Below, one piece after another: positions 18,072 through 48,836 of a DNA stretch of 53,313 nucleotides. The notes beneath the pieces are model-generated. The model saw only the letters and a program-made list of their open reading frames with translations, did no database searches and was not told the origin of the DNA. This DNA is from Bacteroidota bacterium. GTDB taxonomy: Bacteria; Bacteroidota; Bacteroidia; AKYH767-A; OLB10. The stretch covers positions 1 to 53,313 of the forward strand of contig JBJOND010000006.1 of NCBI GenBank assembly GCA_046052065.1, read 5' to 3'. A program made the translations under genes and the position numbers. The stretch's first letter is position 1; the number at the start of each line of letters is the position of its first letter.

Positions 18072-21000
18072 ATGAATCGATTAAAGTTTAATCTTATTGT
18101 AATTGCGCTACTGGCTTTTTATTATTCCACATCCGCACAGGATGAATGCAGTTCAGCAACAACAATAACACCGGGTGCATCGTGTAGCTATACTACATTC
18201 GATTTGCCTGGGGCTTTAACACGGTCATCTAATCTACCAAGTGCATGTAGTGGAAGTGGAATTGTGGATGATGCATGGGCAAAATTTACAGCAACTGCTA
18301 CAGCCTCAACTGTCCGCTATCAAAATACTAATCGAGATGCTGCAATATGGATTTATAGCGGAACGTGTGCATCGTTAACTTACATAAATTGTTCTAATAA
18401 CAGTACCTCCGCCAGCACTGAAGAAGTTACGTTCGCTTCTCTTGTAGGAACAACTTATTTTATTCGTGTAGGCCGTATGAGTGGAAATGGATCTCAAAGT
18501 ATGAGCGGTTCGATATGTGTAATTTGTGGAGACCCACCAGCTAACGACAACCCATGTGCGACAACGTTAGTTACAGCTAATTCCTCGTGCTCCTTTACGT
18601 ACTTTACCAATCTAATGGCAACATCTACTTCAGGCGTAGCTACGCCAAGTTGTGGAAATTATTCAGGGGGTGATGTTTGGTTTAAAACAGTAGTGCCTTC
18701 ATCGGGAGCACTTACAATCAGTACAGATACTGGGGCAATTACAGACGGGGCAATGGCCCTATATAGTGGATCTTGTGGGTCATTAACTTTAATCAATTGT
18801 TTTGATGGCGGTGGAGGCTCAAATGGGTTGATGCCTACGGCAAATCTTACTTGCTTAACACCTGGTGATACGCTATTCACTCGTTTCTGGGAAAGTGGTA
18901 ATGATGTAACGGGAACATTTAAATTCTGCGCTGTTGATCCTGGTGGTGCATCTGGCGTTCCTACAAATGATGAACCTTGTGATGCATTATCTATTATTTT
19001 AGGCGTACCAACAACTGGAACAAATAGTTGTTCGGGAGGGTCAGGTGAACCTTCAGCGCCATCTTGTTGGACAAATGGTAGCGGACAGCTAAACACAGTA
19101 TGGTATTCTATAGTAGCACCAGCAAGTGGTAAGCTTAGCATAAGAACAGGATTAGGAACATTAATCAATACTCAAATACAAGCATTCTCTGGGAGCTGCT
19201 CTAGTTTAGTCTCCATTGGCTGTAGTGATGACGTATCCTTATGCGGGGGTACGCAACAATGGTCGCAGCTACTATTAACAGGTTTAACAGCAGGTGCAAC
19301 CTATTATATTCGTGTGGATGGTTTTAATGGTTTGATGGGTGATTTTACAATCACTGCAATTGATGGAAATACAAATTGGCCAGCAGTACCAGGACAAGAT
19401 TGTTCCTCTTCATTATCTGTTTGTAGTGCGAATATGTCTGTAGGTAATCCCGGATTTTTAGGAAGTGGAAATTTTTGTGATTACCCGGGTAATGCAACTG
19501 GATGTTCAACCGGATCTTGTATTAAAGTAGGTGAAAGAAATTCTGTTTGGTATTCATTTTCGACTAATGCAACAGGGAATATTGAATTTATAATAACACC
19601 AAATTCTCCAGTAGATTACGACTGGGCTTTGTATGATGTTACTGGATTACCAGATGGATGTTCTTCCATTTCATCAAGTTTATTGTCCCCAGTTCGTTGT
19701 AGCTATTGGGGAGGTACAGGCCCAACAGGTTTGTCATCAGCAGGAACAGAAACCTGCGACGGTACTTCGGGAACGGAAGATGGATGGTCAAATGTGTTAC
19801 CTACTTTAGGTAACCGTCAGTATTTATTATTTGTGAGTAATTATAGTCTCACTACGTTTGTTGGTTATTCACTCACGTTTGGATCGAGTCCAATTAATTA
19901 TAATCAGAGTAGTAATCTTACCTGGTCAGGTTCTGCTGGTACTAACTGGAACAATTCCAACAATTGGGGTGGGTGTAATATTCCAGATTGTAGCCGTGAT
20001 GTATTAATTTATGGTGGTCCGTCATCACAACCAATTATCCCAGATAACACCACTATCAATTGTCGAAATCTAACAATTCAAGCGGGTGCTACATTAACAT
20101 TCGGACAAAACTGTACGCTTAATATTTGTGGAAGTTATGTTAATAATGGGTTGTTAAATATGCCTTCTACTTGTACCATTCAATTTCAAAATGTAGCAAC
20201 GCAAACCATTGATGGTAATATGACAGGAACTAATAAGTTTGGAAATTTTACAGTATCCAAAACAGGAGGAACGTTAACATTTTTGCAAGATGTTGATGTA
20301 AGTGGAAATCTGACAATCAATTCGGCGCTTTCTACTACTACAATGAACGGTAAAAAAGTAAAGTTGGAAGGAAATTTTTCTAATCCAAGTTCTGCTTTAA
20401 TTATACCAGTTAGCTCGACTCTTGAATTTTATGGAAGTAATAATCAAACGTATCATCAAGGAGCAGTTGATCTTGATCATCAAAATGTAATTATCAATAA
20501 GGCAGGAGGTTTTATTACATTACAAACCGACTTGGTTGTTGATGAGTTGGGCGTTTTAAATTTAACGAATGGAATTATCGCAACAGGGCTAAATAAAGTG
20601 TATTTACAAAATGAATATTCAACAGGGCTGATTGGAGGATGTTCGAACAGTTATATTGACGGTGAATTAATGCGTGATGTTGTTGGCTCAGTCAACACCT
20701 ATACTTTTCCTATTGGTAAGATAGGTATTGGGTTTCAACTTGCTTCCGTAGATGTTATTAATCCTGCTGCATTGAACGCGTTAAGTGGTCGATTTAATTC
20801 ATGGTCAACTGTTCCGATGGGTCCTTCATCGAACGATTGTGGAGGAGCTAATTACGGATTAATGCAGGTGTTTAACTCTGGATATTGGACATTTAATTCT
20901 ACACCTGCCAATGTACCTGGAAATTATAGTATGAGTATTGCTTCAACTGGACAAACGAATGAAGGGTACAATGCAGGAACAACAATTGTTAAATCAACAA

Positions 21001-21674
21001 ATGGCGGTATTGCGTGGGGATTAGATGGTGTTTGTGTTACAACAAGCAATGCAAGACTTGCAGCACGATCTTTAATGAGTGGATTTGGAATGTTTGCTAT
21101 TGGACAAACCTCAGCGCCGTTACCAGTAGAGCTTTTATCGTTTACGGGCACTCCTCATGAACATTATAATTTACTTGAATGGATGACTGCTACTGAGAAA
21201 GACAATGATTTTTTTACTTTAGAAAAATCGTTTGATGGAGTTTCTTTTGAAAAGGTTGGTACCATAAAAGGAGCTGGTAATAGTAGCGTACAACAAAATT
21301 ATTCCATGTTAGATGATAATACCGCCAATGGCATTACCTATTATCGTTTATCTCAAACAGATTACGATGGAACAACAAGTAAGAGTTCAATTATTGCTAT
21401 CAACCGAAAAAATAAATCGTGTGTTGTTATGGCTTATCCTAATCCTTCAACAGGCCCTTGTGCATTGCATATCGAAACCGTTAATACTGGAAATTACACT
21501 CTTTATATAAGTGACTTGCATGGCAGAGAACTTTTCAGGCAATCAATTTTTATTGATAAAGAAGTTTATAGTTATAACTTTAATATTTCAGAATATAAAT
21601 GCGGAATTTATAATTGTATTCTCGAAAATGACGAAACAAAAGAACGAGTCAATATTCGTTTTATCAGACAATAA
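18072..21674 (+). CDS. Large Cys-rich T9SS-secreted surface protein (1200 aa)
   Basis: Signal peptide, repeated modules starting QDEC/NDNPC/NDEPC/QDC each with a later D/T/S-V/A-W motif, a beta-rich centre, the LPVEL domain and a YPNP C-terminal domain. Confidence 0.85.
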   Translation: MNRLKFNLIVIALLAFYYSTSAQDECSSATTITPGASCSYTTFDLPGALTRSSNLPSACSGSGIVDDAWAKFTATATASTVRYQNTNRDAAIWIYSGTCASLTYINCSNNSTSASTEEVTFASLVGTTYFIRVGRMSGNGSQSMSGSICVICGDPPANDNPCATTLVTANSSCSFTYFTNLMATSTSGVATPSCGNYSGGDVWFKTVVPSSGALTISTDTGAITDGAMALYSGSCGSLTLINCFDGGGGSNGLMPTANLTCLTPGDTLFTRFWESGNDVTGTFKFCAVDPGGASGVPTNDEPCDALSIILGVPTTGTNSCSGGSGEPSAPSCWTNGSGQLNTVWYSIVAPASGKLSIRTGLGTLINTQIQAFSGSCSSLVSIGCSDDVSLCGGTQQWSQLLLTGLTAGATYYIRVDGFNGLMGDFTITAIDGNTNWPAVPGQDCSSSLSVCSANMSVGNPGFLGSGNFCDYPGNATGCSTGSCIKVGERNSVWYSFSTNATGNIEFIITPNSPVDYDWALYDVTGLPDGCSSISSSLLSPVRCSYWGGTGPTGLSSAGTETCDGTSGTEDGWSNVLPTLGNRQYLLFVSNYSLTTFVGYSLTFGSSPINYNQSSNLTWSGSAGTNWNNSNNWGGCNIPDCSRDVLIYGGPSSQPIIPDNTTINCRNLTIQAGATLTFGQNCTLNICGSYVNNGLLNMPSTCTIQFQNVATQTIDGNMTGTNKFGNFTVSKTGGTLTFLQDVDVSGNLTINSALSTTTMNGKKVKLEGNFSNPSSALIIPVSSTLEFYGSNNQTYHQGAVDLDHQNVIINKAGGFITLQTDLVVDELGVLNLTNGIIATGLNKVYLQNEYSTGLIGGCSNSYIDGELMRDVVGSVNTYTFPIGKIGIGFQLASVDVINPAALNALSGRFNSWSTVPMGPSSNDCGGANYGLMQVFNSGYWTFNSTPANVPGNYSMSIASTGQTNEGYNAGTTIVKSTNGGIAWGLDGVCVTTSNARLAARSLMSGFGMFAIGQTSAPLPVELLSFTGTPHEHYNLLEWMTATEKDNDFFTLEKSFDGVSFEKVGTIKGAGNSSVQQNYSMLDDNTANGITYYRLSQTDYDGTTSKSSIIAINRKNKSCVVMAYPNPSTGPCALHIETVNTGNYTLYISDLHGRELFRQSIFIDKEVYSYNFNISEYKCGIYNCILENDETKERVNIRFIRQ

Positions 21675-21757
21675 AAAAGAAGAGCGGCCATTTAGCCCCT
21701 CATTTAGTTTTAAATATATTTGTATAATGAAGGAACTATCTAAATTATGTGGTTTAT

Positions 21758-22037
21758 AAAATAGTGGCTTTAAAGACACTATTTTTAAGAGTAAGTATGC
21801 TGACAGTATGCATTAAGTCATATAAAATCAGTCGAGCTCGACTGATTTTTTTGTGGATTGATGAAAAAAATAATTGTTTGTTATTAAACGAGTGTGCCGC
21901 GGTAAACTCATTTGTGGTATTGTGGTTAGACAAAAAGAAATGGACGATATTTTCAGTGTAACACGTTACACTATTTTGAAATAAAGATTTGATATCGGAG
22001 TTTGTAACAATAAAAACAGTCCAATTGGACTGAATAT
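21758..22037. repeat. Regularly spaced array of five variable-core palindromes (AGT-core-ACT with A/T flanks)
   Basis: Units at 21758-21785, 21824-21849, 21886-21913, 21950-21977 and 22012-22037. Centre-to-centre spacing is 65, 63, 64 and 61 bp. Confidence 0.8.
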
Positions 22038-22147
22038 TTCAAACTTTGAGTGTTGAAAAATGAAATGAACGATATTATATCAGATATGCTTCATTGAAAA
22101 TTAGTAGTGGGTTGATGATATTTTGAAATGAATTAATTTTTCTGCAC

Positions 22148-22176
22148 AAAAAAACCCCGATGACAATCGGGGTTTT
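22148..22176. terminator. Intrinsic terminator of sodA, possibly bidirectional
   Basis: aaaaccccgat-gaca-atcggggtttt with a preceding A tract. Confidence 0.85.
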
Positions 22177-22198
22177 AATTTTTATGTTAAACGAATTC

Positions 22199-22801
22199 TT
22201 ACATAGTAAATCTCTTCTCTGCTTCTTCCCAGTTTACTACATTCCACCACGCATTGATGTAGTCGGGGCGACGATTTTGATAATGCAAATAGTAAGCATG
22301 TTCCCAAACATCTAAACCAATAATAGGAAAGCCTTTTACATCAGCAACATCCATTAACGGATTATCTTGATTTGCAGTGCTGCAAATTTCTAAATCGCCA
22401 TTTGCATTTTTAATTAACCAAGCCCAACCTGAACCAAAACGTGTTGTAGCTGCTGCATTAAATTTCGTTTTAAAATCTTCGAAGTTGCCAAATGCTTTGT
22501 TGATGGCTTCTGCTAAAGTTCCTTTCGGCTGTCCGCCACCGTTAGGTGATAAAATTGACCAGAACATGGAGTGGTTGTAATGTCCACCGCCATTGTTACG
22601 TACTGCCATTGGATATTTGCTGATGTTTTTGCATATATCTTCTATGCTTGCATTTTCTGCATCTGTTCCAGCAATTGCATTGTTAAGATTAGTTACATAC
22701 GCTTGATGGTGTTTTCCATGGTGGATTTCCATTGTGCGTGCGTCGATATGAGGCTCTAAAGCATCTAAATTGTAATTAAGTGTTGGTAGTGTGAATGACA
22801 T
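22199..22801 (-). CDS. sodA: Superoxide dismutase, probably Mn-type
   Basis: [28 protein letters not shown] and DVWEHAYY. Confidence 0.95.
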
Positions 22802-48804: not shown

Positions 48805-48836
48805 TTTTAATTATGGCGAATTCGCCATAATTAAAA
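48805..48836. repeat. Perfect 32-bp loopless palindrome
   Basis: ttttaattatggcgaa|ttcgccataattaaaa. Confidence 0.9.

Follow-up and report, generated by a model that had tools for sequence, protein, structure and literature searches.

A tandemly duplicated array of short palindromes between two convergent genes of a freshwater Bacteroidota species

The DNA considered here, referred to as the window, is a 53,313-nucleotide stretch of the draft genome of a Bacteroidota bacterium (GenBank assembly GCA_046052065.1, contig JBJOND010000006.1, positions 1 to 53,313). Within the window, the genes for a large secreted protein and for a superoxide dismutase (sodA) point their 3' ends at a 524-bp intergenic gap (21675-22198), which harbors an array of five palindromes of 26-28 bp each (P1 to P5, 21758-22037), a weak sixth hairpin and two terminator hairpins, T0 and T7 (Table 1). 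A preliminary description made from the sequence alone regarded the array as a candidate undescribed system and proposed two readings: a collection of same-face sites bound by specificity variants within a single family of dimeric DNA-binding proteins, or a multi-hairpin non-coding RNA.

Table 1. Features in and around the intergenic gap (positions of the window; folding energies are for RNA)
Feature	Coordinates	Strand	Description
Upstream convergent gene	18072-21674	+	1200-aa secreted protein; Pfam GBD_T9SS_assoc, G8 and Por_Secre_tail (sorting tail of the type IX secretion system, T9SS)
T0	21682-21701		Ancestral bidirectional terminator hairpin, GAGCGGC..GCCCCTC; -7.8/-11.4 kcal/mol
Extra stretch	21716-22198		About 483 bp absent from relatives with a T0-type terminator; contains the array and T7; last ~50 bp common to G004 and L030
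P1	21758-21785		Type A hairpin, AGTG..CACT; 13/14 arm pairs; centre TTTAAA; A4/T5 flanks; -7.7 kcal/mol
P2	21824-21849		Type B hairpin, CAGTC..GACTG; perfect 26-bp palindrome; centre GAGCTC; A4/T7 flanks; -13.3 kcal/mol
P3	21886-21913		Type C hairpin, AACGA..CTCATT; 11/14 pairs; centre CCGCGG; -6.4 kcal/mol
P4	21950-21977		Type A, paralogue of P1; arms AGTG..CACTATTTT; 8+2+8; T-run on the + strand only; -5.6 kcal/mol
P5	22012-22037		Type B, paralogue of P2; perfect central 16 bp; centre CAATTG; T-run on the - strand only
Weak sixth hairpin	22064-22095		Decayed paralogue of P3; arms AACGA..TTCATT; 83% complementary; -6.9 kcal/mol
T7	22151-22176		Strong bidirectional terminator hairpin for sodA, CCCCGAT-GACA-ATCGGGG; -17 kcal/mol
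Downstream convergent gene	22199-22801	-	Fe/Mn superoxide dismutase (sodA); Pfam Sod_Fe_N and Sod_Fe_C

When the window sequence was re-examined, all five palindromes, their spacers and the distances between their centres matched the preliminary description element by element. AGT...ACT occurs in every palindrome and encloses a core of 12, 8, 12, 12 and 8 nt in P1 to P5, respectively, and the symmetry runs through the exact centre in four of the five. The hairpin feet are, in the same order, ATAG, TCAG, CGAG, TCAG and ACAG. Spacers of 38, 36, 36 and 34 nt separate the palindromes, and their centres (21771.5, 21836.5, 21899.5, 21963.5 and 22024.5) follow one another in steps of 65, 63, 64 and 61 bp. 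The palindromes had been described as sharing their arms; shared arms do occur, but as three types that are each used twice, namely AGTG..CACT (P1 and P4), CAGTC..GACTG (P2 and P5) and AACGA..TCATT (P3 and the weak sixth hairpin).

The array is not due to chance. Palindromes were scored without gaps (+1 per pair, -1.5 per mismatch, loop of 0-4, threshold 6.5), and the 2.53-Mb, 35.7% G+C draft genome contains 3653 of them, or 1.45 per kb. The 524-bp gap holds six palindromes, T7 included, whose scores add up to 58. When the gap was shuffled 1000 times with its dinucleotides preserved, a shuffle contained 1.1 palindromes on average (at most 5) and had an average summed score of 8.1 (at most 40), and none of the 1000 attains the observed value on any of three palindrome measures; the array thus passes the shuffle test that had been suggested for it. 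Sites consisting of AGT, a nearly palindromic core and ACT number 144 in the genome, and only at this locus do at least three of them fall within 300 bp. By palindrome content the locus ranks fifth among the 320-bp windows of the whole draft genome, where ranks 1, 2, 4 and 6 go to arrays made of other hairpin families, which resemble repetitive extragenic palindromic (REP) sequences. The window also contains, at 48805-48836, a 32-bp perfect loop-free palindrome with arms of 16, the centre GAATTC and flanking runs of T and A.

The array is a diverged tandem duplication consisting of two blocks of about 190 bp, each of which comprises three hairpin-plus-spacer units of about 63 bp. Positions 21740-21945 and 21930-22150 are identical at 128 of 191 positions (67%) with an alignment score of 89.5, where 300 shuffles scored 55.6 on average and 75 at most, and the alignment pairs P1 with P4, P2 with P5, and P3 with the weak hairpin. 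The best self-shifts of 21716-22150 are 192, 64, 188, 125, 63 and 123, all of them approximate multiples of 63; the z of the best is 3.7, just over the 95th percentile of shuffle maxima. Tandem Repeats Finder reports nothing at a score of 30 or more because the copies are too diverged, and the periodicity is visible by alignment and autocorrelation only. The spacers match one another too, both as repeat families within the gap and in the alignment of paralogues, where 60 of 87 aligned positions are identical. Thus, the spacers, which had been called unique, are diverged copies of one another and are not unique in the sense of a clustered regularly interspaced short palindromic repeat (CRISPR) array. 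Since tandem duplication accounts for the ~63-bp phasing, selection for one face of the helix is not needed to explain it.

The paralogous hairpins (P1/P4 and P2/P5) have arms that are identical at 18 of 18 positions and cores that agree at only 3 of 16 positions yet remain self-complementary. P2 and P5 differ by two compensated pair changes, and P1 and P4 differ by three compensated pairs and one broken pair. The arms are less diverged than the spacers (Fisher p 0.006), in a comparison of cores, arms and spacers that is limited by small numbers, by the mutual dependence of paired positions and by gaps in the alignment, which raise the apparent identity of the spacers.

The array is specific to one freshwater species and is stable across populations. 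The comparison set comprised 11 congeners and 71 further genomes of the family (82 in all) together with metagenome contigs of relatives. A single terminator hairpin stands between the same two genes in 10 of the 11 congeners. In six of these (G001, G002, G003, G006, G007 and G008) the genes lie about 45 bp apart with one terminator hairpin between them, and in G004, G005, G009 and G010 the gap is 90-130 bp with a single hairpin; G011 has a different upstream gene at this place. Positions 1-116 and 600-661 of the query directly adjoin each other in relatives with a T0-type terminator. The array-bearing DNA (21716-22150) is unmatched by BLAST in the 82 family genomes, where only short matches at chance level were obtained (G052 included). 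Proteins related to the secreted one (64-89% identity) are encoded on five metagenome contigs, two of which end inside the gene; the three that span the gap lack the array and have one terminator hairpin instead.

Contigs assembled in four independent studies of freshwater or lake metagenomes hold the array at 97-100% identity, which means that it is neither an assembly artefact nor a one-off. A contig of run X3 covers 21689-22200 with no differences, one of run X4 covers 21500-22017 with three, one of run X7 covers 21796-22193 with nine, and two of run X6 cover 21763-22030 with eight and 22011-22244 with three. The number and order of units are unchanged over the stretch that each contig covers. 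Run X6 also contains the "empty" form in a relative of about 90% identity, as a contig joining 21715 to 22208. In run X7, a relative of about 86% identity seems to carry P1 followed by a joint to about 22059 (window 21579-21783); only 20 letters lie beyond the joint, and this possible shorter array in a sister lineage is too weak to be used. Two of the three differences between this genome and the X4 strain fall within hairpins. At 21767, runs X4, X6 and X7 have T in place of G, making P1 a perfect 28-bp palindrome, and at 21698 the same runs have a G that restores the perfect T0 stem of the relatives. This genome and run X3 have G at 21767 and C at 21698, each of which breaks a hairpin pair. 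Because the bases are paired in the X4 strain, and for T0 in relatives as well, the two pair-breaking point mutations of this genome are derived.

The neighbours of the array are housekeeping genes and genes for secreted proteins. Between 12.8 and 29.7 kb lie tsf, a pyrH-like kinase gene, frr, genes for T9SS cargo proteins, sodA, and genes for a glycosyltransferase, an AIR-synthase-related protein and phosphate transport. Within 9 kb on either side of the array there is no gene for a regulator, for partition or of a mobile element, and the earlier statement that no partner gene is evident holds among these neighbours. T0 of this genome has one mismatch (the C at 21698) that weakens its stem; a perfect GAGCGGC..GCCGCTC occupies its place in G001, G002, G003, G007, G008 and the metagenome relatives L027 and L028, and the hairpin is diverged in G006. 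T7 has counterparts (CCCCGAT..ATCGGGG) after sodA in G004 and in the metagenome relative L030. It is one of a small family of dispersed hairpins, CCCGAT-N2-6-ATCGGG, which the genome contains 13 times, as compared with none for the reversed control. Five copies of this family form a tandem array at C85:4371-4667.

The hairpins of the array have much of the anatomy of terminators. An A-run, stem and T-run are present on both strands of P1 and P2, on only one strand of P4 and of P5, and in poor form in P3. The same anatomy characterizes ordinary bidirectional terminators in this genome, in which AAAA is present in the arms of 211 of 389 strong palindromes and the arm words that are enriched consist of A-runs followed by G+C-rich stems. 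Loop-free palindromes make up 37 of the 222 strong palindromes of the genome; together with the AAAA arms, this indicates that fully symmetric hairpins with A/T flanks are common here.

The array stretch is non-coding. Its only open reading frame (ORF) of more than 30 aa encodes 54 aa from 21797, and 21824 A>T in runs X6 and X7 gives a stop codon. Small peptides from the ORFs of 10-54 aa in the gap were rejected as being without support, the longest being broken in other strains. ARAGORN detects no tRNA or transfer-messenger RNA in the stretch, and Rfam (E up to 10) yields only sub-threshold small-RNA noise, with best scores of 26-28 bits against gathering scores of 60-80. A single TAnnTTTG, a -7-box-like motif, occupies 21715-21722 on the left border of the insert; 0.57 are expected by chance, and there is no TTG upstream. 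Among the sequencing runs listed for this stretch there is no RNA run. RNAalifold misaligned the five hairpins, whose units differ in core length, and its result is uninformative.

Searches of wider collections returned little. With 21700-22200 as a blastn query, there was no match among phage records and only two chance-level matches of 26-43 nt among plasmid records (E 0.1 and 0.5). The exact 24-mer of P2 has no match in genome contigs or viral contigs, and the 21-mer of P4 has none in viral contigs. None of the five palindromes occurs a second time in its own genome, where BLAST returns the locus itself, and the arm patterns are at control level in the 82 family genomes. Thus, neither homologous arrays nor core matches were found beyond control level in the genome, the family, or the phage, plasmid and viral collections, which counts against the general undescribed system that had been envisaged. 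Two short matches were treated as chance. One is a 27-nt match of 21847-21874 (93-96%) in 14 family genomes that lies inside a conserved coding segment, and the other is a 23-nt match of 21770-21792 inside another coding gene. The former, which is the only recurrent match of the insert, reads FFVIDEKNN and looks like secA. A restriction-site function was also rejected, as the genome avoids none of the core hexamers; observed/expected is 0.99 for TTTAAA, 0.90 for GAGCTC, 0.91 for CCGCGG and 1.17 for CAATTG.

The genome contains several hairpin families of the REP-like kind. One is a family of loop-free palindromes centred on GGGTTTAAACCC (contigs C20, C28, C31, C106 and C2), another is the TCCCGATAGCTATCGGGA hairpin family on C85, to which T7 is related, and another is the GTTCAACCC..GGGTTG family on C12. 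There are also four Y1_Tnp (IS200-like) genes. Three of the encoded proteins pass the NCBIfam IS200 cut-off, none of the four reaches the REP_Tyr_transpos cut-off, and three of the genes are flanked by a hairpin family of their own. The gene on C106 (2047-2439, minus strand) is flanked by GGGTTTAAACCC palindromes (L014:1350-1960, corresponding to C106:1930-2540), which looks like the classical arrangement of REP sequences and a REP-associated tyrosine transposase (RAYT). The gene on C2 (L013:1100-2200, corresponding to C2:18600-19700) has flanking hairpins of the form GCTCC/GCCCC-N3-4-GGAGC/GGGGC, and that on C12 (L015:1000-1500, corresponding to C12:29600-30100) has flanking GTTCAACCC..GGGTTG hairpins. 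A fourth, more divergent gene on C65 has no obvious flanking hairpins. Hairpins of the AGT type flank none of the four genes, and no Y1 gene is present in the window.

The GGGTTTAAACCC family has 11 copies in this genome and 2-19 copies in 8 of the 11 congeners, as compared with none for the control. Its palindromes are loop-free, perfect and 24-32 bp long, with a fixed apex and a stem that varies symmetrically between foot and apex; of 15 long copies, 13 have a CAG or TAG foot. In this genome the palindromes are grouped in doublets and triplets at spacings of 47-93 bp (C28:4710-4885, C20:19595-19752, C31:12855-12980 and C2:86373-86447), and in congeners they often occur as pairs spaced 66-82 bp apart. 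The family is conserved at orthologous sites, with the same two palindromes on C28 of this genome (G000), C42 of G008 and C92 of G003, between which the spacers drift. It looks like a REP/RAYT-type system in a T9SS-bearing lineage of the Bacteroidota type. Small phased arrays of related but different perfect palindromes are therefore a habit of this genus, and the array in the window is the longest such array found and the only locus-specific one.

The array is best compared with REP clusters and bacterial interspersed mosaic elements (BIMEs). Like the clusters of Escherichia coli, for example REP325, and the REP clusters surveyed in PMC3733652, it consists of short extragenic palindromes (stem-loops of 26-28 bp) that are regularly clustered (61-65 bp) and amplified in tandem with their linkers. 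Such clusters often lie between convergent genes and can act as terminators or mRNA stabilizers, and Y1 genes are present in the same genome. In contrast to REP sequences, which are dispersed in tens to hundreds of copies, the array occupies a single locus, lacks the GTAG or CGTC tag, and is A+T-rich, loop-free and perfectly symmetric, with neighbouring units that differ in their cores. Without dispersal, the tag or a cognate Y1 gene flanked by the same palindromes, the array is not filed as a member of a REP family. The GGGTTTAAACCC family of the genus (for example on C106 of G000) resembles the array in its loop-free perfect palindromes of similar length, its feet, its symmetric stem variation and its grouping, but its apex is fixed and its copies are dispersed and conserved in orthologous places, whereas the apices of the array vary at a single locus. 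Bidirectional intrinsic (Rho-independent) terminators have a succession of A-run, stem and T-run at the 3' ends of convergent genes, which the array shows in part. The array differs from these in having five to six extra hairpins in series with weak, G+C-poor stems and self-complementary loops, several of them with a T-run on one strand only. The CRISPR-like geometry noticed earlier, with the variation lying inside the palindrome, is real in that partly palindromic repeats alternate with spacers at a period of 61-65 bp and differ in their cores. A CRISPR array was nevertheless rejected, since the repeats are non-identical and the spacers paralogous, no leader is present, and no Cas1 was found in the 93.5%-complete draft. 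Arrays of operator or centromere type differ from this one, in which the half-site spacing is not constant (8 or 12 nt) and no partner gene lies nearby.

The explanation that we favour, with a probability of about one in two, is that the array is a BIME-like, lineage-specific and locally amplified array of non-coding hairpins in a terminator region. On the best reading it belongs neither to a dispersed REP family nor among CRISPR or operator arrays. A module of about 63 bp, consisting of a hairpin (A-run, stem and T-run) and a spacer, would have been duplicated in tandem repeatedly, giving rise to a three-hairpin block of about 190 bp and then to two copies of the block that end at T7. REP clusters reiterated in tandem along with their flanking DNA are reported in PMC3733652, and PMC2817692 presents BIMEs as regularly spaced REPs. 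We infer that the units act as hairpins in RNA or in single-stranded DNA and not as duplex binding sites. They would probably serve to terminate or insulate transcription that converges on the gap and to shield the 3' ends of mRNAs; relief of supercoiling may be a further role by analogy with that proposed for BIMEs in part of PMC3733652. The symmetry may be kept by selection on the hairpins or by intra-strand template-switch correction of quasi-palindromes. In an excerpt of PMC8794818, template switching is reported to create and maintain perfect hairpin stems.

Several observations weigh against this explanation. The array has weak stems rich in A+T (-5.6 to -13.3 kcal/mol when folded as RNA versus -17 kcal/mol for T7), P3 has poor T-runs, and a consensus terminator scan passes only P5 on the minus strand and T7. 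One good terminator suffices in every relative, and five more are without obvious need. Purifying selection is unsupported at the strain level, as both within-hairpin substitutions relative to the X4 strain (21698 and 21767) break a pair. In addition, the cores are more diverged than the spacers (3/16 versus 60/87 positions identical, Fisher p 4e-4, under the limits of alignment and sample given above), an excess that would not be expected from simple drift combined with selection on the hairpin. Neutral change with symmetrising correction could give most of the core divergence; a rough calculation yields about 0.6 of the core pairs changed versus 7 of 8 observed, a difference that is not significant.

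A true REP/BIME cluster, in which one of the four Y1 (IS200/RAYT-like) transposases recognizes the hairpin foot and has amplified the units, is unlikely here. Y1 transposases act on REP/BIME sequences (excerpt of PMC3333891), and most of the Y1 genes here pass the IS200 cut-off and have flanking hairpins. The GGGTTTAAACCC family matches the array in being loop-free and in length, spacing and symmetric stem variation; its CAG/TAG foot has a counterpart in four of the five array hairpins, and the centre TTTAAA and foot ATAG..CTAT of P1 resemble that family. Conserved arms combined with a variable core length also fit recognition of a hairpin foot. However, the five palindromes are found nowhere else in the genome, their arm patterns are at control level in the family, the Y1 genes lie outside the window and away from hairpins of the AGT type, none of their products reaches the REP_Tyr_transpos cut-off, and the feet differ from the GTAG and CGTC tags given in PMC3733652. 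It is doubtful as well that the locus encodes a non-coding RNA, that is, a read-through transcript or a transcript from its own promoter that is cut into small or nucleoid-associated hairpin RNAs. REP325, a transcribed six-fold tandem REP cluster of E. coli according to extracts of PMC4550694, would be the model. Several stable hairpins on both strands, the TAnnTTTG at the edge of the insert and an array that is intact in four populations would agree with such a locus, but no Rfam match comes near its gathering score, one TAnnTTTG without an upstream TTG is the chance level, and there are no homologues in which covariation could be seen. Moreover, the symmetry is perfect even through the loops, and four of the five palindromes are free of G-T pairs, which is unlike the product of selection at the RNA level alone.

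The symmetry through the very centre of four palindromes suggests symmetry at the DNA level, which together with the conservation of the arms (18/18) between paralogues and the distance of about six helical turns between centres recalls the binding-site array of the preliminary description. It is highly improbable that the array serves dimeric proteins of differing specificity as a decoy, an operator bank or a centromere-like site. The phasing is explained by duplication, and the conserved arms are 8 nt apart in some hairpin types and 12 nt apart in others, which a rigid dimer on duplex DNA would not tolerate. The sites are located at the 3' ends of both genes in a neighbourhood of housekeeping genes without a regulator, partition or mobile-element gene, no related site turns up at other loci of the genome, in the family, or among phages and plasmids, and the core hexamers are neither avoided nor enriched (observed/expected 0.90-1.17). 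The same-face reading is therefore not supported. Very little likelihood is also given to a functionless remnant, in which foreign or mobile DNA, or a decayed gene, landed between two terminators and is drifting. This would account for a species-specific stretch lying between the T0 and T7 types, which relatives carry singly, and for the derived substitutions of this genome that break hairpin pairs. Against it, there is no match among phages, viral contigs or genomes, the two plasmid matches are weak (E 0.1 and 0.5), no coding signal is present, and neither terminal inverted repeats nor a target duplication are found at 21715/21716 and 22198/22199. The internal periodicity and the kept symmetry point to local growth and not to the import of a decayed gene.

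A further suggestion, which is speculative and probably wrong, is that the locus records active rewriting of palindromes in which the hairpin feet stay constant and the cores are replaced wholesale and symmetrically. If this were true, hairpin-templated copying, by template switching or by a hairpin-specific Y1 enzyme, would make new palindromes here. The locus would then be a snapshot of the birth of a REP-like family, and the array would be a substrate bank rather than a set of terminators.

If the array is instead a locally amplified hairpin array in a terminator region, as we favour, it would provide a clean and datable case of an intergenic terminator region that has grown into a multi-hairpin array within one species. 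The finding offers no pointer to a new defence, partition or regulatory system, and the symmetric rewriting of the cores is its one notable feature. With an "empty" ancestral site preserved in all relatives and a filled one that is stable from lake to lake, the locus would be useful for studying the origin of REP/BIME-like clusters and the upkeep of perfect palindromes.

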